From Cyanobacteria bacterium P01_D01_bin.156 (GTDB lineage: Bacteria > Cyanobacteriota > Cyanobacteriia > Phormidesmidales > Phormidesmidaceae), in contig JBCCQQ010000049.1 of assembly GCA_039024555.1 (NCBI GenBank), positions 1-48,923 on the forward strand: a stretch of DNA of 48,923 nucleotides. Reading direction: 5' to 3'. Shown here in pieces: positions 233 through 38,999 of the stretch (position 1 is the first letter of the stretch; every line of letters starts with the position of its first letter). The notes below the pieces were generated by a model that saw nothing but the letters and a program-made list of their open reading frames with translations, did not search any database and was not told the DNA's origin. The position numbers and the translations under genes are program-made.

Positions 233-1201
233 TTATGTATCTAAGGGACTTTTTACACCACGACCGCCACGATTGAGCACATGGGTGTAAATCATGGTTG
301 TTTTAACATCCTTATGGCCTAATAGCTCTTGCACTGTGCGGATATCATAACCATTTTCTAAAAGATGAGTTGCAAAGCTATGGCGAAAGGTATGACAGCC
401 ACCATGTTTTATAATACCCGCCCGATTAATAGCTTTTTTCACTGCTCGTTGTATGGTTCGCTCATAAATATGGTGTCTCCTCACAATCTTGGTTCGAGGA
501 TCGATTGAGCGTTTCCAAGAGGGAAACACAAATTGCCATTTCCACTCGCTATGGGCATTAGGATATTTATGGGCCAATGCATAGGGCAGTTCTACTGTTC
601 CGTACCCCAATGACAGGTCCTGTTCATGGAAGCTTTTAGCTTTCTGCAACTGTTGTTGCAATGGGGCAACTAGTGAGGTGGGTAGCATGGTTCGGCGATC
701 CTTTTGGCCTTTACCATCTCGCACTGTAATTTGGTGATATTCAAAGTCTATGTCCTTGATGCGTAAGCGTAGTCCTTCCATCAAGCGCATACCTGTGCCA
801 TAAAGCAGGCTAGCTATTAGATGTTGAATACCATCCAGGTTAGCTAAGATCCGTTTTGCTTCTGCTTGAGTAAAGACAACTGGTAAGCGTTGAGGACGTT
901 TAGCGCGTTCAATATTGTCTATGTAAGGTAGCTCTATGTCTAAAACTTGACGATAGAGAAATAGCAATGCGCTTAAGGCGACCGTTTGAGTTGATGCTGC
1001 TACATTCCGATGGATTGCAAGGTGTGATAAGTAGGCTCTAATTTCAGATGTCCCCATATCCTTAGGATGTTGCTTGTTATGAAACAAGATGTAATCCCGA
1101 ATGTAGTAGATATAGGACTTTTCAGTGGAAAGGCTAAAGTGCTTCAGACGGGCAACTTCCCTAACCTGATCGAGTAAGCGTGGCGGCTTTGATTGTTCCA
1201 T
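233..1201 (-). CDS. intI: Integron integrase (tyrosine recombinase), 322 aa
   Basis: Catalytic set intact: GMRLME (R), GKGQKDR (K), [12 protein letters not shown] (H-x-x-R), LLGH, TMIYTH (Y). Carries the integron-specific insertion [12 protein letters not shown]...WQFVFPS...RHH and is divergent from a cassette array with attC sites. Confidence 0.97.
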
Positions 1202-1412: not shown

Positions 1413-1439
1413 GATCTGACGCTGAATATATAGTTAGCT
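1413..1439 (+). other. Putative attI site, crossover at G/TT 1433-1434
   Basis: Core GTTAGCT at 1433-1439 lies upstream of intI and is the exact complement of the R'' AGCTAAC of the first attC, as expected for the two halves of one integrated cassette. Confidence 0.65.
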
Positions 1440-1571
1440 AGCAAATCGCAAACCTTCCTGAGCGGGCACATTCTTTCTAAAGACAAAAATTTTCCAGTGT
1501 TATGGCAACGTGGTGTTAGGTAGATGTACATTTAGTGCATTGTGATAAATCTAAAAGTAACTTCAGGAAAA

Positions 1572-1955
1572 ATGGGAGAGCTATATTTAGCAATTGATGG
1601 TGATGATGTGGGGCATCGACTCGAATACTTAATGTTGATTAATGAGCGTGAGACTATTTTCGAATTCTCCAAAATCTTTCAAAGTGCTATGAATTGGCTA
1701 GAGATTAAATTAGTGGAAGATTTTGATGCAGATATTATCTTTAATGGAGGTGATAATTTGTTGGCTTGTCTTTCTACAGAAAATCTAACCTCCGAACTTA
1801 TGGAAGAATTAAGAACTGAGTTTGCTAAAAAAGCGGACAGCACCATATCAGTAGGTTTAGGCAATAGTCCGAGACAGGCTTACTTTGCTCTAAAATTGGC
1901 AAAGACGAGTGGCAAAAACTGTATTCGTCATTTTCAGGAACTTGCCAATGGTTAA
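1572..1955 (+). CDS. Minimal CRISPR polymerase (mCpol) domain protein, putative cyclic oligonucleotide synthase, 127 aa
   Basis: YLAIDGDDVG (D9, D11), IIFNGGDN (D61) and C-terminal TISVGLGNSPRQAYFALKLAKTSGKN fit a single small Cas10/GGDEF-like palm of the mCpol family. ATG at 1572 with AGGA RBS preferred over GTG at 1542. Confidence 0.88.
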   Translation: MGELYLAIDGDDVGHRLEYLMLINERETIFEFSKIFQSAMNWLEIKLVEDFDADIIFNGGDNLLACLSTENLTSELMEELRTEFAKKADSTISVGLGNSPRQAYFALKLAKTSGKNCIRHFQELANG

Positions 1956-2679
1956 AACTCTTTTCTTATTTTTGTTTTCTAATCGTGTTGATACATATAT
2001 AAATGCCATTTCATATGCCTACGATGAAATGGAAATTAAAGCGGTCAGACTAGTGTATGTGAAAGGTACAAAAATTGGTCTGAAAGATGATACTCAAGCT
2101 AGTGCTGTGTTTACTGAAATTTGGAGTCGATTACAGGAGTTAGCTGAAAAGACAAACGGTATTTACAAACAAATAAATGAACGTCTACTAGACCGACAGC
2201 TTATACCTATTGAATACTCAAGTTTGAAGATCAGCTTAGGACGCTTATTTAAATTACATGGTGGTCCAAGAAACTGCATCATAGACTTGACAAGTGCTTC
2301 TAAGGTCGCAAGTATTGATGTTTTTACAGTCTGTTTTGCACTGGGGATCAAATCAATTCATACATTTGAGCTAGGGTTGCCATTTGATCCAAAAAGTCCA
2401 GACAAGTTTCTTTATCATGCTCTTTCAAAAAGTGAATATTCGTACACTTGTCTAAGCATCACTCCACCTGTGAGATCTAGTCAGTCATCACTTGTGCGTA
2501 AATCGTCTTTACTCTGGTATGTAGGATGTGTTGCCCTAGTAGTTATGGTTGTTTCACTGTATATCCTTGTAAATCTTGGACCTAATAGTTCATTTGTTCA
2601 GTTTTTAAATTTGACAGCCGCAGTTATTGGATTAGCTTCGCCAGCCTTGGCATTACTTGAGCAACGGCGTGAGCACTAA
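1948..2679 (+). CDS. CARF-like Rossmann-fold protein with two C-terminal transmembrane helices, putative effector, 243 aa
   Basis: ATG at 1948 overlaps the mCpol stop by 8 nt and has an AGGA RBS. Alternating beta/alpha pattern with CIIDLTSASKVASI resembling the CARF D-x-T-x-G-x-K motif; hydrophobic helices LLWYVGCVALVVMVVSLYILVNL and FVQFLNLTAAVIGLASPALALL. Confidence 0.72.
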   Translation: MVKTLFLFLFSNRVDTYINAISYAYDEMEIKAVRLVYVKGTKIGLKDDTQASAVFTEIWSRLQELAEKTNGIYKQINERLLDRQLIPIEYSSLKISLGRLFKLHGGPRNCIIDLTSASKVASIDVFTVCFALGIKSIHTFELGLPFDPKSPDKFLYHALSKSEYSYTCLSITPPVRSSQSSLVRKSSLLWYVGCVALVVMVVSLYILVNLGPNSSFVQFLNLTAAVIGLASPALALLEQRREH

Positions 2680-2685
2680 GATGCT

Positions 2686-2769
2686 AGCTAACACTGCGTT
2701 GCAACGGCGGGAAATAGGCAGTTGGTCAGAATCTAAAGTTACTGCCGCCGTTGAACTTCGCCGTTAGCT
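2686..2769 (+). other. attC site 1 (84 bp)
   Basis: R'' AGCTAAC at 2686-2692 just after the stop codon and R' GTTAGCT at 2763-2769. Inner arms GTTgCAACGGCGG / CCGCCGTTGAAC pair perfectly apart from one extrahelical base. Confidence 0.93.
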
Positions 2770-2818
2770 AACACAGTCAAAACCCTCAAATTCAGACAAG
2801 CGATTCAAGGAGTTTAAT

Positions 2819-3025
2819 ATGGCTTGTAGAGATTGTTCTCGTTGCACAAGATCATTAGCATCCAGAATATTTCGGAGTATGGTTCGGTTTTTTCTAGCAA
2901 TTTGCACCCTATTCGTTTCTGAAATATTGTTGTTTCTCTATCGCATGTTTCTAGCAAAGTGTCCAAATTGTGGGCATGCTCTCAGACATCATCAATTTAC
3001 GACAGATGGGGGCTTCAGAGACTAG
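2819..3025 (+). CDS. Small Cys-rich membrane protein (cassette gene), 68 aa
   Basis: AAGGAG RBS; CRDCSRC at the N-terminus, a central hydrophobic helix and CPNCGHALRHH near the C-terminus; starts 50 bp after attC1. Confidence 0.7.
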   Translation: MACRDCSRCTRSLASRIFRSMVRFFLAICTLFVSEILLFLYRMFLAKCPNCGHALRHHQFTTDGGFRD

Positions 3026-3286
3026 AAACTTAGCCTAACTTCTGCTAACCACCTGACTACGTTTTTAGGAGGTAGTGCTGTTTAACTACGTCGTTATTAC
3101 CCCAGTAATGAAATAGGGTGAGGAGTTTCTAGTCCAAAACCCAGATTTCAGAGGCTTTAAGCAGAAGTCCTTGCCTGTTTGACCACCGGGTTAATAGCTT
3201 TCAGCACCGATGCCTAAACCTTAATACTTCTTGAGTTTTTCACAAGTGACTTAACATAATATTCGCAGTGAATCTTCAAACACCCG

Positions 3287-3751
3287 ATGGTACAAATTTA
3301 TTATCGAGGTATGGCAGCAACGGATGGTAAACCTAAATTAGGTCGTAGCGCTCGTCTTCTGGGTATTAGACCTGGTGTGGACATTGATGTGTCTCATATG
3401 CTGCAAGGTTGGTTAGATTTTCAGGGCTATTTGCATCCTGAAGTAGCACGAGATGATTCAGGTGTAGAGGTGGAAGTCGCTATCAGAAATACAAAAGGCA
3501 TGTCCACATCGCTATCTATTGAAGGGTTACCGGCTTTTCGGAAACCTAAGGCTTTTGGCGGAACAGGGAGAGATCCCTTATGGCGAATTGACAGCAAGTA
3601 CATTAACGGAGATTTAGAAGCCGTCCAAGACAGCCTTACCCATGTCAGCATTATGCCAAGGGTTACAATGTTATTAGAACGATATGAGGCAGCGTTAGCG
3701 GAAACTCAGAACTATTGGCAAAAGGTGGTTGATGATGGCTTGGGTATTTAG
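3287..3751 (+). CDS. Putative Tse2-like ADP-ribosyltransferase-fold toxin, 154 aa
   Basis: YYRGM (R7), GMSTS (S73-T-S75), LPxxRxPxxxGGTGRDPLW and THVSIMP (H119) give an Arg/Ser/His arrangement typical of Tse2-type ART domains. Confidence 0.6.
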   Translation: MVQIYYRGMAATDGKPKLGRSARLLGIRPGVDIDVSHMLQGWLDFQGYLHPEVARDDSGVEVEVAIRNTKGMSTSLSIEGLPAFRKPKAFGGTGRDPLWRIDSKYINGDLEAVQDSLTHVSIMPRVTMLLERYEAALAETQNYWQKVVDDGLGI

Positions 3752-4259
3752 TCTATCGACGGAATGTGGCTCAGAACAAAGCACAGCAGAGCACTTTGCT
3801 CAGCATTTTGAGCCTGTTTCATGGTCTCTATCAAATGGTTCTCAATCCCGGTGCCATTCCACCGTTTTTCAAGATATTGATGAAAACTGGTGGTGTCGAA
3901 TATGTCCTGATGGCATAAGTACAATCGGTATCGAAGCGCCAGACTCAGCCTACTTAATGACTGAGTTAGGTATTTTGCTTTATAAGCACTTGCAGTCTGC
4001 TCCCGCCTTTCGCTACGCCCTAGTCGGACTTGAAGTTGATGAGTTTAGGACATTTGACGAACTACTAAATGTGTCATCTACCCTGAATATACCAGGATTG
4101 GTTTTATCTGAGAGTACTTGGCAGTCACTTGGTTCACTATCGGTATTTAGGGCTTTCAGTTCAGGCTATGTTTGGCAGCCTTACGAAGGGGAAACTTACA
4201 ATCCTTTGACAGTATCTCCATTACTGAAGGAGCAAATGAATCGTCTATTAGCAGCATAG
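3735..4259 (+). CDS. Hypothetical protein, candidate immunity/antitoxin partner
   Basis: Start overlaps the 3' end of the ART-like gene (possible starts 3729/3732/3735); acidic and globular; ends 17 bp before attC2. Confidence 0.6.
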   Translation: MAWVFSLSTECGSEQSTAEHFAQHFEPVSWSLSNGSQSRCHSTVFQDIDENWWCRICPDGISTIGIEAPDSAYLMTELGILLYKHLQSAPAFRYALVGLEVDEFRTFDELLNVSSTLNIPGLVLSESTWQSLGSLSVFRAFSSGYVWQPYEGETYNPLTVSPLLKEQMNRLLAA

Positions 4260-4276
4260 TGGTATTTATCTAAATC

Positions 4277-4360
4277 AGCTAACACTGCGTTGCAACGGCG
4301 GAGCATAAATTAGTCAACTAAATCCAAAGTTACTGCTGCCGCTGACCAGGAACGTTAGAT
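4277..4360 (+). other. attC site 2 (84 bp)
   Basis: R'' AGCTAAC at 4277-4283 and R' GTTAGAT at 4354-4360. The first 25 bp (AGCTAACACTGCGTTGCAACGGCGG) are identical to attC1, and AATCYAAAGTTACTGCYGCCGYTGA is shared. Confidence 0.9.
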
Positions 4361-19255: not shown

Positions 19256-19991
19256 CTAAAATTAATACCTATGTCGCCATGCGTGAATAGCTCATTTCAA
19301 CAATACATTTGGCATTGAAAAAATCTATCAATAGTATGTGCTATCTGGCCTTTAAAGGCATTAGCAGCTTTTTTCCCAGCCATACTATGATCTGACTTCC
19401 AAAGTCCATACATTCATCAGAAACATTCAATCTATCCTTAACGTCTTGTGGCTTGAGTTGACTATTGGTCAATGACAATATGCGAAGTTCACTGGGCATT
19501 GGGGCATCTTGATACTGAGTGACAGTGCCCCGTCCTTAAATGTCTATCAGTCATAGTGTTGAGAGGTAAATGGTAATCCTAACGATGAGATGCCCGATTA
19601 TAGCTATACAAGCACTAAAAAAATATTTATTAGATAGTTAGCCCTCTTAAAACAGCCTCTTTTCTCTTTAAAGAGAAAAATACTTAAATCAAACATAGAT
19701 AGTGTGATGAATACTTTGAGAGGATTGTCGAAGCTGTTTCAACATTAAGCATATGCGTTGGTGGCAATGTAAAAAATATGCTCCAAGATCTCTGCATTAT
19801 CAACTATATTCATCCAATCTTATCCTGGTGTGTTTTTAAGCCGTAGTAGAAGTTATTGACTGACGTTCGTACCGAATTTTGTTCTATTCTTTGGTGTGTT
19901 ATTGATTCTTGTATCTACCGTATTTATACTGCATTGAATTTGTCCACAGGAGCTTTTGGGGTCTGTCCTAGGACACGTACAGAGTGATACT

Positions 19992-22232
19992 ATGAAATAT
20001 GCATTTATTAAGCAGCCCAGAGAAGAAGATTGTGGCATAGCGTGTATTGCCATGGTGGCTAAACACTATGGGCAGCAGCTTTCTCTTACTCGAGTGCGTG
20101 AGTTAGTGGGCACAGGTCGCCTTGGTACATCCCTATTAGGGTTACAGCAAGGGGCTCAAGCATTAGGCTTTCAAGCCCGATCAGGCCAAGCCACCGATGA
20201 CATTTTTAACCGTATTCATCGTCTACCATTGCCCGCTATTCTCCACTGGGGAAACGATCGCTGGGTGGTGTTGTATGGCAAAAGACGAGATCGATTTGTA
20301 ATCGCTGACCCCGGAAGCGGTATTCAACATCTCAGTGCGGCAGATATTAAGCGCAACTGGGGGGATGGTGCCATGCTTTTGATGGTGCCAGATGATACTT
20401 TCTATCGGCTATCAACCCAAAAGAGTAGTCGAGTTGCCGGCATTTTTCAGCAAATCTGGCCTTATCGTCTTTCTCTACTCCAAGTTTTTGCATACAGTCT
20501 TCTTATCGGCCTATTATCCCTGGCGACTCCTATCGCAGTACAGTTCATTATTGATGATGTGCTGATCGCTGGAGATAGTGATTTACTACCCAAAATAACC
20601 CTGGCAGCCCTAGGATTTTGGCTTATACAAGGCCTATTGAACCTTGTTCAAGTGAATGTTCTAGCCAATACCTTTCAGCGGCTAGAACTAGGACTCACCT
20701 TAGAGTTTGCACGTAAGCTATTGCGCTTACCCTTGAACTACTACGAAACTCGACGTAGCGGAGAGTTCTCTAACTACCTCAAAGATATTTCTCGAATTAA
20801 TGAGCTGATTGTAGATGGAGCCATGCAGCTGCCTGGACTGTTTTTTACAGCCTTGGCCGCGTTCGGCTGTATGCTGTTTTTCTACAACAGATTGTTAATA
20901 TTAGTCTCTCTTGTGACGGCAATCCTTATGCTGGTCGTAACCCTAGGGCTATTACCTGTCTTTCAAAATCGTATTCAGCATTTATTAACCCTTAATGTGA
21001 AAAACCAAGCACTACTGGGAGAAATTTTTAGGGGAGCGACTACCTTCAAAACCACCACCGCTCAACCGCAGCTTTGGAAAGAGATTCAAGGGCGCTTTGG
21101 CAATTTGGCCAGTAGAAAGGCAGATATGCTTCAGCTTGGATTTCTCACCAGCCAAATTGCCACACTTATTCGTGGGGTTGGAAGCATTGTGGCTTTTTGG
21201 CTGGGGAGCACGATGGTAATAGCCCAGTCGCTGACGTTTGGACAGCTTTTGGGCTTTAGTATTCTGAGTTATAGCTTTTTAGAGCTAATTAGCTTCATCG
21301 TTAAGTTTTCGCATAGGCTCATGGAAATTAAAACGTCATTGCAACAGTTTGATGACGTTGTCGAAGTTGAAGAAGAAAGTCCTGAAGATTGGCTCAAGCC
21401 TCTGGCTGAAATTCCCTCGGATGGAGATATTGTCTTTAATCAAGTCAACTTTCACTATCCAGGTCGCTTTAATTTACTAGAAACCTTTTCTCTGAAAATT
21501 CCAGGGGGTAAATTTTCTGCCATTGTGGGCGCTTCTGGATCTGGGAAAAGCACGATTGCGAAGATTTTGGCAGGTTTGCATCCCTATCAGTCTGGAGAAA
21601 TTTTAGTGGGTCCCCACAGCCTGCGTGATTTATCTACAGACTGTGTGAGACGACAAGTTATTTTAGTCTCCCAAACAACTCACTTTTGGAGTCGTTCCAT
21701 CTTAGAAAATTTCCAGCTTTGTGCTCCTACTGTGACGTTCAAAGAAATTGCAGCAGCTTGTAAGATTACGGGGGCAGACACATTTATCGACAAATTGCCC
21801 AATGGATATAGAACCGTGCTAGGTGAACACGGTTCTACTCTTTCAGGAGGGCAACTCCAACGTTTAGCGATTGCTCGAGCACTGATATTAAAGCCTGCAG
21901 TTTTAATTTTAGATGAATCCACAGCCGCGTTAGATCCCATCAGCGAGGCTGAGCTGTTACAGCGATTGATGGTTCATCGTAAAGGTCATACAACCGTCTT
22001 AATTAGTCACCGGTCCAGCATCAATAGAATTGTTGATTGGATAGTTGTCGTCAATGACGGGACCACGGTTATGGCGGGTTCTCCTAAGTCCCTATTAGGA
22101 CGGCAGGGAGAACATTTACAGTTTTTAGAAGGAGAACTTCCACCTAATGTGGGAGACACTTCAAAATATTTAATTGCCAACGCAAAAGAGTCATCAGCTC
22201 TTTCTGCACTTCCTGGTCATCTGGAAAAATAA
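19992..22232 (+). CDS. Peptidase C39 domain-containing ABC transporter (PCAT 1)
   Basis: QPREEDCGIAC, ABC membrane domain, GASGSGKS, LSGGQ, ILDESTAALD and SHR. The catalytic His position reads HWGNDRW. Confidence 0.95.
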   Translation: MKYAFIKQPREEDCGIACIAMVAKHYGQQLSLTRVRELVGTGRLGTSLLGLQQGAQALGFQARSGQATDDIFNRIHRLPLPAILHWGNDRWVVLYGKRRDRFVIADPGSGIQHLSAADIKRNWGDGAMLLMVPDDTFYRLSTQKSSRVAGIFQQIWPYRLSLLQVFAYSLLIGLLSLATPIAVQFIIDDVLIAGDSDLLPKITLAALGFWLIQGLLNLVQVNVLANTFQRLELGLTLEFARKLLRLPLNYYETRRSGEFSNYLKDISRINELIVDGAMQLPGLFFTALAAFGCMLFFYNRLLILVSLVTAILMLVVTLGLLPVFQNRIQHLLTLNVKNQALLGEIFRGATTFKTTTAQPQLWKEIQGRFGNLASRKADMLQLGFLTSQIATLIRGVGSIVAFWLGSTMVIAQSLTFGQLLGFSILSYSFLELISFIVKFSHRLMEIKTSLQQFDDVVEVEEESPEDWLKPLAEIPSDGDIVFNQVNFHYPGRFNLLETFSLKIPGGKFSAIVGASGSGKSTIAKILAGLHPYQSGEILVGPHSLRDLSTDCVRRQVILVSQTTHFWSRSILENFQLCAPTVTFKEIAAACKITGADTFIDKLPNGYRTVLGEHGSTLSGGQLQRLAIARALILKPAVLILDESTAALDPISEAELLQRLMVHRKGHTTVLISHRSSINRIVDWIVVVNDGTTVMAGSPKSLLGRQGEHLQFLEGELPPNVGDTSKYLIANAKESSALSALPGHLEK

Positions 22233-22279
22233 TTTTAGTCAATACTTGTTTATTATCACTTTCAGCATAAGTGTTCTCC

Positions 22280-23446
22280 ATGAAACATGATGATGCCTTG
22301 TCTAATTCGCTGTTCGATTCGTTGAATCAAGGAACAGAGTCAGAAGCTTTGGAGTCTGACAAAGCTCACAAATTAGCGATTGATCGCGCTAATGTAGTAT
22401 CTGCGCTAGCCCCTGTAAAACGTTTCGAACCTAGGCAGTCGGTTAGCGAAAATTCTGAAAATGCTACAGTTCCCATCGTTGATAGCTTCTTGCCTGCCCC
22501 CAATCGCTGGTTGATTATTGGTGGGTTAGGACTAGCTGGGGTACTTGGCTTAAGTGCCATTTTTCTGACATCGTTGCCCCATCGCACAATTGTTAAAGCA
22601 AAAGTCAAGGTTGAACCGGTGGCAGAACCCCGGGTCTTACAGTCTGGAGCGGGGGGAACTGTCGCCAGTATTCGTGTACAGAACTATGACTCATTAAAAC
22701 CAAATCAGGTGATAGCCTCTTTCGAAAATCCTGATCTATATTCACAATTGAGCGAGCTACAAGCAAGAATTAGCCAAACTCAACAGCAACTCAAACAACT
22801 CAATGATGAGCTGATCGCGATAGAAGAGCGTCAGGCATCTGGCAGATGGTTGGCATTTAAAGTTCCTCAAGGTCAGTTTGAATATTCGAAAAGATTGCTG
22901 CTAGATAATCAAAATGAGCTGCAACAGCGGTTGACTGTACAACAACAGCAGTTAGCTAATGTTCAGGAACAAATAGATAATACGACCATTTATACGCCCC
23001 TTGCTGGTACCGTTTATGACTTAGAAATAAAAAACGTAGGTCAAACAGTTGCTGCAGGTGAGCCGATTGCTAAAATTATTTCTAAAGATATTCCTTTGGA
23101 AATTAAAGCCTTGGTCTCTGACAGTGATGTAAATATTATTAAAGTAGGTTCACCTACCCAGATCAATCTGGCAAGCTGTGCATATTCTAATTTTGGAATC
23201 TTAGAAGGAGAGGTTGCTGATATCCAAGCATTAACCCCAGAGCTTGCTGAAGGGTTCACAGCTGAAGATGGCCTTTCTCCAAATTTTGACCAACATATGG
23301 TAACTATCGTGGCTAAGCCAGATAATAGTAGACAGCAGACCTGTAAGGTGTTGCCTGGAGTAAACGGTGAGGTTAATATCATCGCTAGGCAGGAACGATT
23401 CTTGAACTTTGTTTTAAGGAAACTACGTTTTAGCAGTAACGTGTAG
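22280..23446 (+). CDS. HlyD-family membrane fusion protein
   Basis: N-terminal TM, lipoyl-like halves flanking a Gln-rich coiled coil, IYTPLAGTV and CAYSNFGILEGEV. Confidence 0.9.
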   Translation: MKHDDALSNSLFDSLNQGTESEALESDKAHKLAIDRANVVSALAPVKRFEPRQSVSENSENATVPIVDSFLPAPNRWLIIGGLGLAGVLGLSAIFLTSLPHRTIVKAKVKVEPVAEPRVLQSGAGGTVASIRVQNYDSLKPNQVIASFENPDLYSQLSELQARISQTQQQLKQLNDELIAIEERQASGRWLAFKVPQGQFEYSKRLLLDNQNELQQRLTVQQQQLANVQEQIDNTTIYTPLAGTVYDLEIKNVGQTVAAGEPIAKIISKDIPLEIKALVSDSDVNIIKVGSPTQINLASCAYSNFGILEGEVADIQALTPELAEGFTAEDGLSPNFDQHMVTIVAKPDNSRQQTCKVLPGVNGEVNIIARQERFLNFVLRKLRFSSNV

Positions 23447-23460
23447 TAATTTTTAAGAGT

Positions 23461-24087
23461 ATGTTGGAATCGGCTGACAACCCACAACAGGATGAGTTAT
23501 TTCCATCTAGGAGCGATGAATTGACGCTGGTGGATGTTTCTGTGGTTGCCGAAGAGCTGGCATTGGATGCAACGTCCACCTCTCCCCAACAGATTTCTAA
23601 ACCAACATCAGGGACCTATACGATAGAGCTTTTTCGTGATGAAGCACAGGTGACGGCCACTGAGCTCTTGTATGGCGATAGCATTTATGTCTTAAACGAT
23701 ATCGATGCGTTGCAAATTCTAAAGCTGCAGCGTAGACGTTCTGTTATTCAGAAAAAGCTGAGTAATTTCTTGGCTGGTGTGCTGATTACCTTTGGTTTGG
23801 TGCTAATGCTTAGCCCCTTATTTTGGTTGATAAAGCTTTTTGGTCTTCTGTTAACCTTGGCTAGTGTAGGCTACGTTGTTTATTTCAACTGGTGGATTGA
23901 ACAGCGTAGACGAGGGGAGTTTGGTTTGTTGCTGACCACTAAGCTCAATACTCAAGTTGTGATTACCAGTCATAATCTCAAAGCTATTCAATCCCTTTAC
24001 CAAATTATGTTTGGGCGTTTAGATGGTGGAAATATCCACGGTGAACCTTTAACGGTCAATATGTACACAGGTGAAACAGTAGGCTAG
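23461..24087 (+). CDS. Hypothetical two-TM protein (DUF6232-like)
   Basis: 208-aa ORF starting 14 bp after HlyD, with a hydrophobic hairpin; family call tentative. Confidence 0.6.
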   Translation: MLESADNPQQDELFPSRSDELTLVDVSVVAEELALDATSTSPQQISKPTSGTYTIELFRDEAQVTATELLYGDSIYVLNDIDALQILKLQRRRSVIQKKLSNFLAGVLITFGLVLMLSPLFWLIKLFGLLLTLASVGYVVYFNWWIEQRRRGEFGLLLTTKLNTQVVITSHNLKAIQSLYQIMFGRLDGGNIHGEPLTVNMYTGETVG

Positions 24088-24120
24088 TTCACCCGTGATG
24101 AGCCAGCTCGTCCTTGGATG

Positions 24121-25455
24121 TTAAAGCTGGGTTATTAGCCTGAGCTTGCGCCATACCATTCTCAGAATGGTATCTTCTTGGGTCAAAATGTCAGCTTGCC
24201 CTGTCATCCCAGCTTGTAACTGACAGTCTCGAGTTTGATCGCTGAGAGAAGTGCGAGAAAGCTGGAGTGTTACTTCGTAGAGTCCACCATCAGCGTTCGT
24301 GCTCACTCTATCTGGAATCGCATTGGGAGCAACGGTATCTGGGGAAATCGTCTGGAATGTTGCGTCTAAAGTACCATAGTCAGTGTAGGGACATGCAGAG
24401 ATTCGTAATTGTACGGCTTGTTGTCGGTCAATTCTAATAATGTCCTGGGGATTGACCCAGGCTTTTGCTACGAGTAAATCGTCATCAGCGGCAATTTCAG
24501 CAATAGACTCTCCCGCCGTTACGACTTGAGCATGGTTGCGCAATTCTAGAGATTGGATAGTACCGGCCACAGGGGCTTTGAGGGTGAGTCTGGTAATTTC
24601 TTCTTCAGTTTGAACCAGATCTTTTTGGGTTTGGTTAAGCTGATTGAAAAGATCGCTACGTTGCTGAATTAAGGTTTCTGCTTCCTGTTGTAGTTGGGCT
24701 AAGGTGGCATTCCCTTCGGCATGGGTCTGGGCAATTTGCTGTTGAGCGATGATGACTTCCGCCGCACTTGGCTGGGCTGTAACTTTGGCTTGTTCGTAGT
24801 TAGCGAGCGCTGATTCTAAAGTAACTTCTCGTTCTCGTAACTGACTGGTTGCGATCGCACCTTCATCTACCAGCTGCCGATAGCTATCCACATTTTCTTG
24901 AGCCAGATCCACTTCAGCCTTTAGCCGTCGCAAATCAGACTGGTTGACTAGCCGAGTTTCCTGTAGTTGCTGCTGAGCTAAAGCCAATTCTGCTGTACTA
25001 GCCTTTAAATTGCCTTCAATTTGGGCTACCGTCGCCTTGATACGTTGATCAACCGATTTCAGCTGATTGTCCAGCTGTAGCACCTGCTGTTCCAGCTGGA
25101 TTACACTGGTGCGTAATTGAGCAGCTTGATTTTGCAGTTCTGTATCATCTAGGTAGGCAATCACATCCCCTACTTTCACCTGTTGATTTTCCTCCACCAA
25201 GATCTCACGCACTTGCCCTGGGACCGTTGCCTCAACAAAGCGGAGCTCCCCAGCAGGACGGATAACAGCCGGTATCCTCACAGTTTCACGCACCGTAATT
25301 ACTTGAGCCAGGGTTAACATGGTTAAAACGCTAACCACACCCGCCAGCCCTCCCAATCGCTGCCATCGATCCATCGGGGGTAAGAAATCAGTCGGTATCG
25401 CTGGACTAATTGCCGCTGGATTAACCTGGGAAACATTTGATATATCGCTCTGCAT
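24121..25455 (-). CDS. HlyD-family membrane fusion protein
   Basis: IRPAGELRFVEA, long coiled coil, LKAPVAGTI, ACPYTDYGTL and LQAGMTGQADI. Confidence 0.93.
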   Translation of the reverse strand: MQSDISNVSQVNPAAISPAIPTDFLPPMDRWQRLGGLAGVVSVLTMLTLAQVITVRETVRIPAVIRPAGELRFVEATVPGQVREILVEENQQVKVGDVIAYLDDTELQNQAAQLRTSVIQLEQQVLQLDNQLKSVDQRIKATVAQIEGNLKASTAELALAQQQLQETRLVNQSDLRRLKAEVDLAQENVDSYRQLVDEGAIATSQLREREVTLESALANYEQAKVTAQPSAAEVIIAQQQIAQTHAEGNATLAQLQQEAETLIQQRSDLFNQLNQTQKDLVQTEEEITRLTLKAPVAGTIQSLELRNHAQVVTAGESIAEIAADDDLLVAKAWVNPQDIIRIDRQQAVQLRISACPYTDYGTLDATFQTISPDTVAPNAIPDRVSTNADGGLYEVTLQLSRTSLSDQTRDCQLQAGMTGQADILTQEDTILRMVWRKLRLITQL

Positions 25456-25527
25456 AGTTAGTCCACAATATCTACAATCTTCAAAAGAACAAAATTATTT
25501 TGAAAGCACCATTGGTCGTAGAGAGTT

Positions 25528-27672
25528 CTAGGGGGTTAGAAAAACCTGGTGCTCGCCTTCTTTTTGGGCTAACTCATTGGGTGGGCCTTGCAAAAATAAA
25601 CTCCCTTTCTGCAACATAACAACCCAGTCAGCCTGCAAAATTACTCGAGGCCGATGACTAATAATGACTGTTGTTTTTCCTTGACGATAAAACAACAATT
25701 TGTCTAGGACTCGGGCCTCCAGCTCAGGATCAAGGGCACTGGTAGACTCATCTAAAATTAAGACTGCCGGGTCGCTGATAATGGCTCTAGCTAAAGCCAA
25801 TCGTTGTCGTTGTCCCCCTGATAGATTAGCCCCAAATTCTCCTAAAACAGTTTGATATTTTTCTGGCAATTCACCAATAAATTCGTCAGCTTGTGCAATT
25901 TGACAAGCTCGCACCACATCTTCAAACGCAGCATTAGCATTACTACTGTAAAAATTTTCTAGAATAGTGCGACTCCAAAAATGAGCTTCCTGAGGGACTA
26001 AGGTTACCTGTTGGCGCAAACAGTTTAAGGAGAGATCCGCCTGATTGTAAGCACCATAGCGAATATTGCCTGATTGTAAAGGATGCAGTCCGGCAATTAA
26101 CTTGGCCAAAGTGCTTTTACCACAGCCAGATTGACCAATTAATGCCGTTACTTTTCCTCCCGGCAGAGTCAGTGAAAAATCATTTAGCAATCCAACCCGG
26201 CCAGGATGACAAAAATTTAGCTGCTGGCAAACAATATCATCACTGCCAGGTAGATTAACTGTGGGTTTTTGATAATCATCCGGGCTTTCGATGGGGGTGG
26301 TAATCACCTCATCAATACGCTGGGCAGCTACCCGGGCACGAGTAAATTCATCACTCAGCTGCACTAGAGTTTCCATCATGGAGGTAACGTACTGGTTGAG
26401 CGTGTTAAATGCTATTAGCTGACCGATGGTGAGTTGTTGGCGAATCACCAGCCAGCCACCGATCCAGAGGATGGCAATGGCTCCAATAGAAGATACCAAT
26501 TGGGAAAAAATACCATTGGAAACGGCCAGCTGATTCCGTTCTAGAGTCAGTCGTCCTAATCGGCCAAATCGACGCTGAAACTCATCCCAAAAATGAGGAA
26601 CCGCATGGGTCGTTTTTAACGTTAGAGCTCCCTTAAATGTCTCCACCAGTAGTCCCTGATTTTCAGCATCGGTAATCAGGAGATTTTGAGTTCGGACCTT
26701 AAGAATGGGCCAAAATATAATCGTAGAGGCCGTCATTGCAACACTAATGGCAATGGCTACCCCAGCCAGCAAACGACTGTAGGCAACCATCAAGCCAATG
26801 GATACTAATGCCACAAATACCTGAGTTGGCACCGTAATAATGGTTTGGGCAACCAGCTGATTGACGACCTGAATATCTTGTATACGGCTAACCACTTCGC
26901 CACTACGACGAGACTCATAATAATTGAGCGGTAACTGCAACAGCTGACGTCCAAAGTCTAAAACCATTTTTAGTTCTAGCCTTTGGCCAAAGTGCAAAAT
27001 TAAATTTGATTGAGTCCATTGCATGAAACTACGCAAACCATTCATGATCACCACAACAATGGCGACGATGGTTAACATACGTAAATCTTGGCGGACTAGA
27101 ACATCATCCGTTAAAACTTGTATCAGTAATGGCAATGCCAATGCCAGTAGACCAATGCCAAAGTTAAGCAACAGCACTTCGGTCAGTAGCTGCCGATGGG
27201 GCTGCAGTGCCTGGATAAAGCCCCTAAAGCTGCCTACATCATCATTATCATTGGCGTAGAAACGTTCCTCGTCGAGTTCTAGCAACAGCATGACCCGATC
27301 GAGCCAGCCCTGCTCTAGCTGTTCGCGGGTGAGATAACGTAGCCCCACTGCCGGATCTGCAACCACGTAGCGCTTTCGTTGTTGACCATAGAGTACGACC
27401 CAGTGGTACCCCTGCCAATGGATAATGGCTGGTAAGGGTACCTCTGATAGTCGGTCAATTAATACATCGGTTGCCTGAACGGCTTGGGCTTGAAACCCTA
27501 AGGACTCTGCTCCCCGGCGTAGGCCCAGCAGCGTGGTTCCTAGCTGGCCTGTACCGGCCATATCGCGCATGCGACTGACCCGAAAAATACGACCGTAATA
27601 TTTTGAGATTGTTGCAAGACAGGCCGCGCCACAGTCTTCTTGGCTCTGTTGCAAAATAGCTGGATAATTCAT
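25528..27672 (-). CDS. Peptidase C39 domain-containing ABC transporter (PCAT 2)
   Basis: QQSQEDCGAAC, HWQGYHWVV and ADP (Cys/His/Asp intact); GQSGCGKS, LSGGQRQR, ILDESTSALD. Confidence 0.96.
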   Translation of the reverse strand: MNYPAILQQSQEDCGAACLATISKYYGRIFRVSRMRDMAGTGQLGTTLLGLRRGAESLGFQAQAVQATDVLIDRLSEVPLPAIIHWQGYHWVVLYGQQRKRYVVADPAVGLRYLTREQLEQGWLDRVMLLLELDEERFYANDNDDVGSFRGFIQALQPHRQLLTEVLLLNFGIGLLALALPLLIQVLTDDVLVRQDLRMLTIVAIVVVIMNGLRSFMQWTQSNLILHFGQRLELKMVLDFGRQLLQLPLNYYESRRSGEVVSRIQDIQVVNQLVAQTIITVPTQVFVALVSIGLMVAYSRLLAGVAIAISVAMTASTIIFWPILKVRTQNLLITDAENQGLLVETFKGALTLKTTHAVPHFWDEFQRRFGRLGRLTLERNQLAVSNGIFSQLVSSIGAIAILWIGGWLVIRQQLTIGQLIAFNTLNQYVTSMMETLVQLSDEFTRARVAAQRIDEVITTPIESPDDYQKPTVNLPGSDDIVCQQLNFCHPGRVGLLNDFSLTLPGGKVTALIGQSGCGKSTLAKLIAGLHPLQSGNIRYGAYNQADLSLNCLRQQVTLVPQEAHFWSRTILENFYSSNANAAFEDVVRACQIAQADEFIGELPEKYQTVLGEFGANLSGGQRQRLALARAIISDPAVLILDESTSALDPELEARVLDKLLFYRQGKTTVIISHRPRVILQADWVVMLQKGSLFLQGPPNELAQKEGEHQVFLTP

Positions 27673-37340: not shown

Positions 37341-38999
37341 TTAGAACCCTAAATCTGCCCTAGCTGCTTCTGCGGCTTTAAAGACCTGGGCATTGGTCAT
37401 TTCATCCCAGGCAGTTTCACCAATCTCGGCATAAAAGTCAGCATCGTAGGGACGGGTACGTACGACGACAGGCATGGGAACGGCATGGCCTAGCAATAGA
37501 GCCTGCTGTTTGGAATCTAGTTTGGCCAGTACTGAACGTAGGTTTTGACCACCAGAAACGCCGGTAAAAATGGCATCAATGTCTTTCTCATCATTCAACA
37601 ATGCCGTAATGCGAGTACCAATCTGCGACATCACTTCATTGTCGATGCCCGAAGGCCGCTGATCTACTACCAGTAGGGTGACAAAATACTTACGCATTTC
37701 TCTGGCGATGGTGCCAAAGATGGTTTGCTTAGCCGTAGCAGGGTCTAAAAAACGGTGGGCTTCTTCAATGGTGATGACTAGCTGGGTGGGGCGATCGCAA
37801 ACATTCTTAGTTTGCAAAAAGCGATCGGCTTTACGCACGTAGCTGGCATGAATCCGCCGTGCGATCACATTGGTAGCCAACATATAGGAAAGCATATTGG
37901 ATTGGGAGCCAAACTCCACAACAACATGTTTCCCCGCATCCAACATTTCAAGAATTTGCTTTACATAGTTGTAGGGACAGGTATTACGAATGTATTTCAG
38001 CTCTGCCAGACGGGTGAGTTTACGCTGTAGCGCCATAATGGACGATTTGCTACCCATTTTGACTTCGCAAAATTCTTGAATCTCCTCATTGCTCATGGTG
38101 AGCAGTCGATTGATCCAGGCTTTACCAAACTCGTTGCGTAGAATAATGGCATTCTCTAAACTCGCTTCGGAGAGATTTAGCTCTCGACCAATCAGGGCCA
38201 GGTCTTCCACGTCAATTTGGTCAAAGCTAATGTAGAGCTCTTGGGCGTCCCGCACCCCCCTACGTTTTGTTGCTTCGGGGTCAAGAGTAAAAATTTGTAC
38301 CTGTCCTGGAAATAGCTGTCGTAATCCTTTAACCGTGCTGAAGTTAGCCCCTTCACTGACCGCTTCCCAGCCATACTCTGAGTGCATGTCAAAAATGAGA
38401 TTGACAGCAGCTTTTTGTTTAATAATCCCAGAAAGCAACAGTCGGGTGAGAAAAGACTTACCGGTACCAGACTTTCCAAAAATACCGTTACTACGTTCTA
38501 CAAAGCGATTGAGGTCAATACATATGGGCACATCCATATCAATGGGCTGGCCAATGGCAAAATTTCGCCGGTGGGGATCGTCCTCCCATCCAAAGACTGA
38601 GCGAAAGTCTCGCTCGCTGGCATCGTATGCCTGACTAAAGTGACCGGGAATTGTTTTTACAGGCAACAGCTGCATCTGAGCAACGTCGCTCTCCTGGCTA
38701 CTGTCGGGGGTAAACATCAGCATGGGAGCCAAGTCTACGGTCCCGTAGGTGCCTCCACCGGCTAGCACTTCCTGGAGGAACAACTCTGTAGGCTGGGGGG
38801 GGTTTGCTAAAATCCGCTGGCTGGCAGTACCGAGAGTGACATCGGTGAGCATGCAAAAGAATCGCGATCGCACCCCCTGAACAACTAAAAATTTACCAAC
38901 CCGCATGTCTTCTACACTGACATCAGCATGGAGACGCACTTCCAATCCTTTACTCAAAGAGCCTTGAATAACAGAACCTAGGGGAATGTCACTGTTCAT
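37341..38999 (-). CDS. HerA/FtsK-like ATPase (DUF87) with N-terminal HAS barrel
   Basis: GKSGTGKS, IFDMHSEY, IEEAHRF, IAREMRKY and DQRPS. Confidence 0.9.
   Translation of the reverse strand: MNSDIPLGSVIQGSLSKGLEVRLHADVSVEDMRVGKFLVVQGVRSRFFCMLTDVTLGTASQRILANPPQPTELFLQEVLAGGGTYGTVDLAPMLMFTPDSSQESDVAQMQLLPVKTIPGHFSQAYDASERDFRSVFGWEDDPHRRNFAIGQPIDMDVPICIDLNRFVERSNGIFGKSGTGKSFLTRLLLSGIIKQKAAVNLIFDMHSEYGWEAVSEGANFSTVKGLRQLFPGQVQIFTLDPEATKRRGVRDAQELYISFDQIDVEDLALIGRELNLSEASLENAIILRNEFGKAWINRLLTMSNEEIQEFCEVKMGSKSSIMALQRKLTRLAELKYIRNTCPYNYVKQILEMLDAGKHVVVEFGSQSNMLSYMLATNVIARRIHASYVRKADRFLQTKNVCDRPTQLVITIEEAHRFLDPATAKQTIFGTIAREMRKYFVTLLVVDQRPSGIDNEVMSQIGTRITALLNDEKDIDAIFTGVSGGQNLRSVLAKLDSKQQALLLGHAVPMPVVVRTRPYDADFYAEIGETAWDEMTNAQVFKAAEAARADLGF

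Follow-up and report, generated by a model that had tools for sequence, protein, structure and literature searches.

How does a two-gene nucleotide-signalling operon come to lie directly beside an integron integrase gene in a cyanobacterium, and what does it do there? The question is raised by a contig of 48,923 bases (C49) from Cyanobacteria bacterium P01_D01_bin.156, which was analyzed in its entirety and is called the window below; the assembly to which it belongs measures 6.62 Mb in 149 contigs and is rated 99.08% complete. A first-pass annotation of the letters alone had proposed that the operon is a single integron cassette in first position. The analysis makes it quite probable that positions 1434-2764 are the complete first cassette of a chromosomal integron, and that this cassette encodes a type II Panoptes pair, a minimal CRISPR polymerase (mCpol) and a CARF-TM membrane effector, acting as a stand-alone alarm. 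The 41 open reading frames (ORFs) of the window were scanned against Pfam and PADLOC, and integrase and mCpol were also scored against TIGR02249 and NF033576, respectively. The features on which the argument turns are these:

233-1201, minus strand: intI, integron integrase of 322 amino acids (TIGR02249; Pfam Phage_integrase and Phage_int_SAM_4).

1202-1433, no strand assigned: attI region of 232 bases, with the crossover between G1433 and T1434, after the first base of GTTAGCT.

1434-2764, plus strand: cassette 1, 1,331 bp, from the attI crossover to the G of attC1 R', carrying mCpol and CARF-TM.

1572-1955, plus strand: mCpol, 127 amino acids (PF18182, NF033576).

1948-2679, plus strand: CARF-TM effector, 243 amino acids (PADLOC PDLC01992, AlphaFold, Foldseek and hydropathy).

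2686-2769, plus strand: attC1, an 84-base imperfect palindrome (canonical geometry, fold and covariance model).

The integrase gene has no internal stop, and its product scores 480.9 bits against TIGR02249 (cut-off 265) over model positions 1-313 of 315; the same model finds nothing above its cut-off in any of 14 control genomes. The GTTAGCT at 1433-1439 lies 232 bases beyond the start codon of the divergent intI gene, and the attI region so bounded contains a CAAATGTGAC-type motif in three direct copies and one inverted copy. Two further observations concern these repeats. The motif, distributed over 1223-1420, is of the type CAAATGTGAC(G/A)NATAA, with blocks kept in four orthologous integrons (alignment A5), and the attI regions of three other integrons discussed below (G021, G130 and G161) have different repeated motifs in the same place. 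The repeats may be binding sites for the integrase or for a regulator.

Where attI ends and the cassette begins can be seen from a comparison with orthologues. Among 21 other genomes of the genus, four (G009, G020, G019 and G017) encode IntI proteins 86-89% identical to that of the window, although the gene is frameshifted in G019 and G017. In alignment A5, which comprises the five orthologous integrons, mean column identity is 76% up to ...GAATATATAGTTA, with no similarity beyond; each of the four other integrons matches the window as far as ...ATATAGTTA and then diverges totally. The orthologues align as far as GTTA and no further, so that the homology stops exactly at the predicted crossover. 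Five contigs of sequencing run X1 agree with the attI core as far as 1437, beyond which they part from the window and from each other. Run X1, labelled a marine metagenome, is the probable source of the assembly and holds 93% of sampled window words; all evidence from the public runs (Logan, X1) comes from assembled contigs, in which rare forms are invisible.

What lies beyond the crossover differs from one orthologous integron to the next. Neither cassette 1, cassette 2 nor the genes that flank them occur within 12 kb of the orthologous intI in any of the four genomes. G009 carries instead a redoxin cassette ending in an attC site, G020 has at least four attC sites with an OLD/GajA-like ATPase cassette between two of them, and in G017 a restriction-modification pair, Eco29kI endonuclease plus C5 methylase, directly precedes an attC site like those of the window. 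Cassette content therefore varies among the orthologous integrons, and the same genes are not found at this locus in all relatives, the alternative that the first-pass annotation had raised against its own proposal.

The far border of the cassette is formed by attC1, which begins 7 bases after the CARF-TM stop codon. From R'' AGCTAAC it runs through a 5-base spacer into an L stem of 12-13 bp, interrupted by one bulged base and topped by a variable loop, and a 6-base spacer leads on to R' GTTAGCT; R'' is the exact complement of the attI core GTTAGCT at 1433, as had been pointed out in the first annotation. Folding of the bottom strand gives -17.8 kcal/mol (z -3.28), which only 1 of 200 shuffles equals. 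A related site, 1.6 kb away, has 25 identical bases in common with attC1:

4277-4360, plus strand: attC2, with R'' AGCTAAC, R' GTTAGAT and a weakened L' arm.

BLAST of both sites against related integrons returned next to nothing, so that a pattern finder and a covariance model were required. The model (R1) was built from 12 cyanobacterial attC sites of six integrons, with attC1 and attC2 in the training set; on the plus strand attC1 receives 74.9 bits (19.6 on the minus strand) and attC2 63.5 (21.1), and the model gives 52 (G009), 56 (G017), 49.8 (G279) and 47.9 bits (G161) to sites outside the training set. In the consensus fold of the 12 sites, an R box of 7 bp is separated by unpaired spacers (6 and 7 columns) from an L box in which 3 + 6 pairs enclose a single bulge, and compensatory changes on both sides are seen in 8 of the 16 pairs. 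The bulged L-box base stands on the R''-L'' arm, as in canonical sites. All 12 sites have a G at this base (alignment A6, column 17) when the top strand is read, which makes it a C on the bottom strand; in canonical, well-studied attC sites the bulged base is G on the bottom strand. In the window, the R'' of each cassette complements the G plus the first six bases of its own cassette. The bases that follow attC2 (TTAGAT) miss complementarity by one base, a mismatch to be expected of the original attI side.

Could the palindrome be a transcription terminator, and the GTTAGCT at 1433 a chance occurrence, so that there is no cassette at all? Words like GTTAGCTAAC are found 5 times in the window versus 1.4 expected, a count attained in 3 of 100 shuffles, so that taken by itself the word is weak evidence; the strict attC pattern finder, moreover, also catches ordinary hairpins, and its 37 matches on both strands of the 6.6 Mb genome are mostly perfect hairpins. 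It is the attC structure that constitutes the strong evidence. With only 37 finder matches genome-wide, one that falls 7 bases past a stop codon and beside intI is not attributable to chance. No T run follows the hairpin and no terminator is listed there, covariation and the family model favour attC, the homology of the orthologues stops exactly at the predicted crossover, and the 25-base arm recurs in a second site 1.6 kb further along. More such sites are present in the source sample, where X1 contigs hold further attC sites with the same arms and different loops. The terminator explanation is accordingly considered extremely improbable.

Other integron parts were seen in the same genome. 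It has three intI genes (the others at C92:17918-18817 and C102:10944-11883), of which one is a pseudogene and one has lost its array at a contig end, and 14 attC-like matches on 11 contigs (including C80, C34, C132, C20, C44, C21, C16, C5 and C142); the attC-like pairs on C80 and C34 have no integrase match nearby.

Both genes of the operon thus lie inside 1434-2764, as one cassette in first position of a true integron. The G+C content of the cassette is 0.38, versus 0.47 for the genome, and X1 contigs break at the cassette borders, one of them being exactly 1413-2764 and the next 2737-4304. Cassette 1 likely arrived by integrase-mediated capture; general integron biology suggests that this would have occurred through attI x attC recombination of a circular intermediate folded as a single strand. 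The first annotation had also called the cassette mobile; if this is meant as a mobile integron, carried by a plasmid or transposon, it is not supported. The gene content of the contig is cyanobacterial and includes PEP (phosphoenolpyruvate) carboxylase, a photosystem reaction-centre gene and further housekeeping genes, while transposase and plasmid families have no match among the 41 ORFs. The integron is chromosomal.

The two proteins encoded by the cassette have the predicted architecture of type II Panoptes. The first matches PF18182 at 91.5 bits (cut-off 26.4) and NF033576 at 79.3 bits, and in an alignment of 16 mCpols (A4) its residues D9 and D11 are invariant and D61 is nearly so. The residue after D61 is N, giving the motif GGDN, and N occupies this position in 12 of the 16 aligned proteins; as the norm of the subfamily, GGDN is an argument for mCpol function and no more than that. 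In PMC13577387, only the D63/D64 double mutant of the characterised mCpol is reported to be inactive. The gene for the second protein is co-directional and overlaps that of mCpol by 8 bases. Its product matches the PADLOC model PDLC01992 (CARF_m9--CARF_TM) at E 3.4e-57 over residues 3-240. An AlphaFold model based on an alignment of 30 sequences (pLDDT 83.3) has an alpha/beta domain followed by helices at 173-210 and 215-242, which coincide with hydropathy windows above 1.6 starting at residues 185-196 and 219. When this model was compared with the PDB by Foldseek, Card1, Cad1, Csm6, Cam1, Csa3 and ring nucleases led the matches, with E values of 1.8e-4 to 8.4e-4 and a probability of 1.00.

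How such a pair might work is suggested by type II Panoptes systems (mCpol plus CARF-TM) from Cylindrospermum stagnale PCC 7417, Sphingomonas and a third source, described in PMC13577387 (PLoS Biol, September 2026). According to that paper, mCpol produces cyclic tri-adenylate (cA3) at a slow, constitutive rate, the dimeric CARF-TM is kept inactive by cA3, and depletion of cA3 by Acb1, Acb2 or a ring nuclease leads to permeabilisation of the envelope and growth arrest. By extension from these relatives, the window mCpol would maintain a low constitutive pool of cA3 that holds a dimeric CARF-TM inactive in the membrane, and removal of cA3 by a phage sponge or phosphodiesterase (Acb1, Acb2) or by a ring nuclease would release the effector to disturb the envelope, whereupon growth would stop. 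Transcription, again judged from what is general to integrons, could come from the integron side or from the cassette's own 138-base leader. That the synthase restrains a toxic effector had been put forward in the first-pass annotation; it matches type II Panoptes (PMC13577387) and the toxin-antitoxin behaviour of type I (PMC12657230), and is thus right in outline but already known.

What would the alarm protect? The first annotation had the pair guarding nucleotide-signalling defences encoded elsewhere in the genome, so that cA3 would be a decoy on behalf of a cyclic oligonucleotide-based antiphage signalling system (CBASS), a type III CRISPR system or a TIR-based system. Its statement that the 49 kb contain no cas gene, CRISPR array or CD-NTase stands: Pfam and PADLOC reveal no cas gene or CD-NTase among the 41 ORFs, where Cas3-like scores come only from an Lhr-type helicase with generic helicase matches, and a k-mer scan reveals no CRISPR repeat array on the contig. 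In favour of a guard, TIR domains are matched 22 times in the genome, and orphan CRISPR arrays lie at the ends of contigs C48 and C120. The TIR matches are within open frames of 496-1,786 amino acids. The CRISPR-like arrays are C48:174-1402 (17 repeats), C120:3-952 (14 repeats) and a third at C46:6143-6368 (4 repeats); those on C48 and C120 have no effector cas genes beside them, the only related ORF being a Cas4-like one on C48, and their cas operons may be unassembled. A search of the whole assembly, however, gave no SMODS/CD-NTase match, the Cas10 palm model matched mCpol alone, Cmr2 and Csm1 gave no matches, and the sole cas operon found is of type I-E (C16, with 38 repeats). [quoted passage not shown] A guard of resident systems is therefore improbable here. 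Since neither CBASS nor a type III system turned up in the genome, the pair most likely works on its own, sensing anti-signalling proteins of phages.

The association of mCpol with integrons is not confined to the window. Elsewhere in the genus the operon itself is absent from 20 genomes, and the effector query matches only 1 of the 21 (G021), in a distant fused form. In a wider sample of 401 cyanobacterial genomes, mCpol is above cut-off in 42 and IntI is present at E 1e-70 or better in 128, and 3 of 20 strong mCpol places (E <1e-18) lie within 5 kb of IntI (G000, G279 and G130). By rough arithmetic about 0.03 such cases would be expected for the 19 places besides the window, an estimate that treats as independent related genomes that are not. 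Three further cyanobacterial integrons have an mCpol module as first cassette, namely G021, G279 and G161; the forms seen are fused, two-gene and split.

In G021, which is of the same genus and has an IntI 59% identical to that of the window, a 470-residue mCpol-CARF-TM fusion (L045 2139-3551) lies 1.1 kb from the integrase as the sole cassette; it matches PF18182 at 68.6 bits and PDLC01992 at E 2.8e-50, has two membrane helices, and is closed by an attC of 58.7 bits. This protein has relatives of about the same length, at least 50 in number, from cyanobacteria, Acidobacteria and Desulfobacterales; one relative (P0055, 624 amino acids) also has TIR domains. In G279 (L078 3856-9353), attI GTTAGCC is followed by a protein of 337 amino acids, by mCpol and then by an attC of 78.2 bits. 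The 337-residue protein has no family match, and contains an RNISAH motif that we take to be HEPN-like. The second cassette of G279 encodes complete IetA and IetS (E 5.8e-79 and 4.8e-56), and a third attC is found at 715-802. In G161 an mCpol and a CARF-TM of another subfamily, 26-28% identical to the window pair, are followed 12 bases after the stop codon by an attC of 47.9 bits; the attI-like GTTATGC upstream exactly complements R'', and the integrase side is lost at a contig end. The operon of G130 was considered as a cassette and rejected: it lies 4.5 kb past the 3' end of an intI pseudogene, has no attC, and the attI faces away at a contig end. Two other genomes (G366 and G044) have fused CARF-HEPN-mCpol loci, and roughly 1 kb downstream of these lie attC-like matches that are weaker, at 36.1 and 34.3 bits.

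A number of observations weigh against the reading of cassette 1 as a captured, stand-alone type II Panoptes unit. The first concerns its closest homologues, a subfamily of 31 proteins at 49% identity or more among 5.8 billion. Nineteen loci of this subfamily were available (3 from genomes and 16 from metagenomes), about 14 of them with at least 150 bases of downstream flank, and at none of the 19 did the pattern finder and model R1 detect an attC site, nor was an integron integrase present; model R1 was trained on cyanobacterial attC sites and those of other phyla could escape it, and the generic finder likewise gave 0 of 19. The GGDN motif departs from the two aspartates (D63, D64) of the characterised enzyme, the effector is only 24-29% identical to cyanobacterial CARF-TM proteins outside its subfamily, and cA3 as the signal is an extrapolation from relatives. 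A type III system could be hidden in the gaps of the 149-contig assembly. The fold of attC2 is no better than that of shuffles (z -0.44), the plus strand between intI and mCpol was searched for a sigma-70-like promoter with no match, and no excision joint (2764->1434 or 1433->2765) was found among the X1 contigs, which cannot reveal rare forms.

The first of these points tells against attC flanks as a general property of homologous operons, which the first annotation had suggested checking. Flanking DNA up- and downstream of the operon has no homology with that of the non-cassette homologues. Two of the 19 loci have matches to unrelated recombinases at 25-27%, and a pair that is 58% identical to that of the window (G024) lies in an islet of low G+C adjoining an IS4-type transposase and a TIR protein. 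Cassette status is thus the exception for this operon, whose homologues are mostly outside cassettes, and yet it is recurrent in cyanobacterial integrons. On one metagenome contig the CARF-TM homologue was observed in two pieces about 1.5 kb apart (L094 29-445 and 1913-2065), as if interrupted by an insertion.

Some of the same observations would suit a cassette that was captured once and is now a fixed chromosomal defence operon, no longer moved. The array is short, and attC2 is a site that we read as a weakened terminal one; decay is common in the group, as 2 of the 4 orthologous intI genes are frameshifted and 1 of the 3 intI genes of the genome itself is a pseudogene; and there is no joined form among the contigs. 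The window intI, on the other hand, is intact and full length, and attC1 is among the top-scoring sites of its family. First cassettes differ between species with IntI proteins 86-89% identical, so that exchange has been recent on such a scale, and the G+C content of the cassette, at 0.38, has not drifted toward the 0.47 of the genome. A fossil cassette is possible, but not likely.

Several details of the public runs touch on the cassette borders. An X1 contig that appears to go back on itself (4308->2735, with 17 other letters between) was considered as a circle junction and rejected, since it contains another attC of the same family. The X1 contig with cassette 1 has a word depth of 13.6 versus 18.9-21.5 for its neighbours, and run X4 contains pieces of attI and cassette 2 with 1520-2604 uncovered; both comparisons are of contigs and carry no evidential weight. 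Pieces of both cassette-1 genes, at about 95-99% identity, also occur in run X3, which is a sediment metagenome of a different study. One X3 contig (window 2620-2691) departs at 2691, inside R'', and runs on with TATATAGTTAGAC..., which resembles the attI end of this integron family with the start of another cassette behind it.

The remainder of the array consists of a second cassette with three ORFs:

2765-4354, plus strand: cassette 2, 1,590 bp, probably closed by attC2, its first bases TTAGCT complementing attC2 R''.

2819-3025, plus strand: cysteine-rich ORF of 68 amino acids with one hydrophobic helix.

3287-3751, plus strand: Tse2-like ADP-ribosyltransferase toxin (PF18648, 56.8 bits).

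3729-4259, plus strand: ORF of 176 amino acids with no family match, overlapping the end of the Tse2-like gene.

The 176-residue ORF is likely the immunity protein. Positions 2765-4354 are treated as a single cassette because neither the pattern finder nor model R1 found a third attC in the window, including the interval between the ORF at 2819-3025 and the Tse2-like gene.

The Tse2-like toxin and its likely immunity protein in the next cassette speak for a further possibility: cassette 1 may be above all an addiction module (the first annotation had suggested that it may act as one in addition), whose loss or silencing would kill the cell and so stabilise cassette and integron, phage defence being secondary. 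Toxin-antitoxin behaviour of type I Panoptes was demonstrated directly in PMC12657230, and PMC13577387 reports that apo CARF-TM arrests growth. All four confirmed mCpol cassettes, furthermore, come first after attI, the arrays having 2, 1, no fewer than 3 and no fewer than 2 cassettes; the naive chance of this is about 1 in 12 and not significant, and the shared position is only suggestive. Excision, by contrast, would take both genes together, and killing after loss is not among the results in the accessible parts of the Panoptes papers. The operon is mostly outside integrons, and for its relatives defence against Acb1-bearing phages has been shown experimentally (PMC13577387). Addiction as the primary role appears about as improbable as guarding.

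A more speculative variant, to which we give little credence, is that a cassette dependent on transcription from the integron side locks its own position. CARF-TM would be toxic once the supply of cA3 falls, and events that lower expression, whether excision or a new insertion at attI, would therefore be punished; the cassette would stay first and freeze the array. If true, this would explain the four first positions and the short arrays, and would add a novel means by which cassettes control integrons.

Two other loci of the window deserve mention. A bacteriocin-type export set, made up of two peptidase-C39 ABC exporters and their HlyD partners, lies at 19956-27672, and at 37341-38999 a HerA-like ATPase (DUF87 plus HAS barrel) adjoins an unmatched ORF of 189 amino acids and may be another defence locus.

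It is important to separate what is new here from what is not. The guard and addiction logic and the type II mechanism are already published, and it is the integron context of Panoptes that seems to be new. No link between integrons and Panoptes or mCpol was found in a full-text search that excluded the supplementary tables of integron papers; the word "integron" is absent from the accessible text of PMC13577387, PMC12657218 and PMC12657230, and "cassette" from the accessible main text of PMC13577387. Panoptes is itself a counter-counter-defence of recent description. Four cyanobacterial integrons, with three architectures, add inverse-signalling guard systems to the known cargo of integrons and extend to cyanobacteria the picture of integrons as a "defence biobank". 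The cassette also provides a compact natural unit of 1.3 kb for experiments on a system with a default-toxic effector, in which the effects of expression level, place in the array and loss can be followed. Because close homologues (45-70% identity) are outside cassettes, it is, in addition, a clean example for how an ordinary operon gains an attC.

The nearest known system is type II Panoptes, with which the cassette shares gene order, metal-binding aspartates, an N-terminal CARF fold, C-terminal membrane helices and a cyanobacterial host. It differs from the characterised examples in the GGDN of its mCpol, in belonging to a separate small subfamily and in being an integron cassette; the hosts described in PMC13577387, moreover, have CBASS and/or type III systems, neither of which was found in the window genome. 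In type I Panoptes (mCpol/OptS plus 2TM-beta/OptE; PMC12657218 and PMC12657230, Nature 2025), a constitutive cyclic nucleotide likewise restrains a membrane effector, with toxin-antitoxin-like behaviour. The window effector is CARF-TM rather than a 2TM beta-rich protein, and the expected signal is cA3 rather than a cyclic dinucleotide. Cam1 of type III CRISPR (PDB 8t66, 8t64 and 8t65; E 4.5e-4 and probability 1.00 for 8t66) resembles the effector in joining a CARF sensor to membrane helices. Cam1 is switched on by its ligand, whereas the type II Panoptes effector is held off by it, and sequence identity between Cam1 and the window protein is 10-12%.

Toxin-antitoxin cassettes are known from chromosomal integrons, in particular the Vibrio superintegrons. 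Cassette 1 resembles them in having two genes, one product of which neutralises the other, and in that it could stabilise an array; it differs from them in that its "antitoxin" would be a small molecule made by an enzyme. The carriage of anti-phage systems in integron cassettes is established through the work of Darracq et al. and Kieffer et al. (two Science papers of 2025, as covered by the review PMC13434031 and by bioRxiv 10.1101/2024.07.02.601719). Those cassettes, as far as the same sources describe them, are from Vibrio and from mobile integrons of Proteobacteria, whereas the present ones are cyanobacterial, in arrays of one to few cassettes. Common to both is a compact defence system in the form of a cassette, and the neighbours of such cassettes in related arrays likewise encode defence or toxin functions (IetAS, an OLD-type ATPase, Eco29kI restriction-modification, a Tse2-like toxin).

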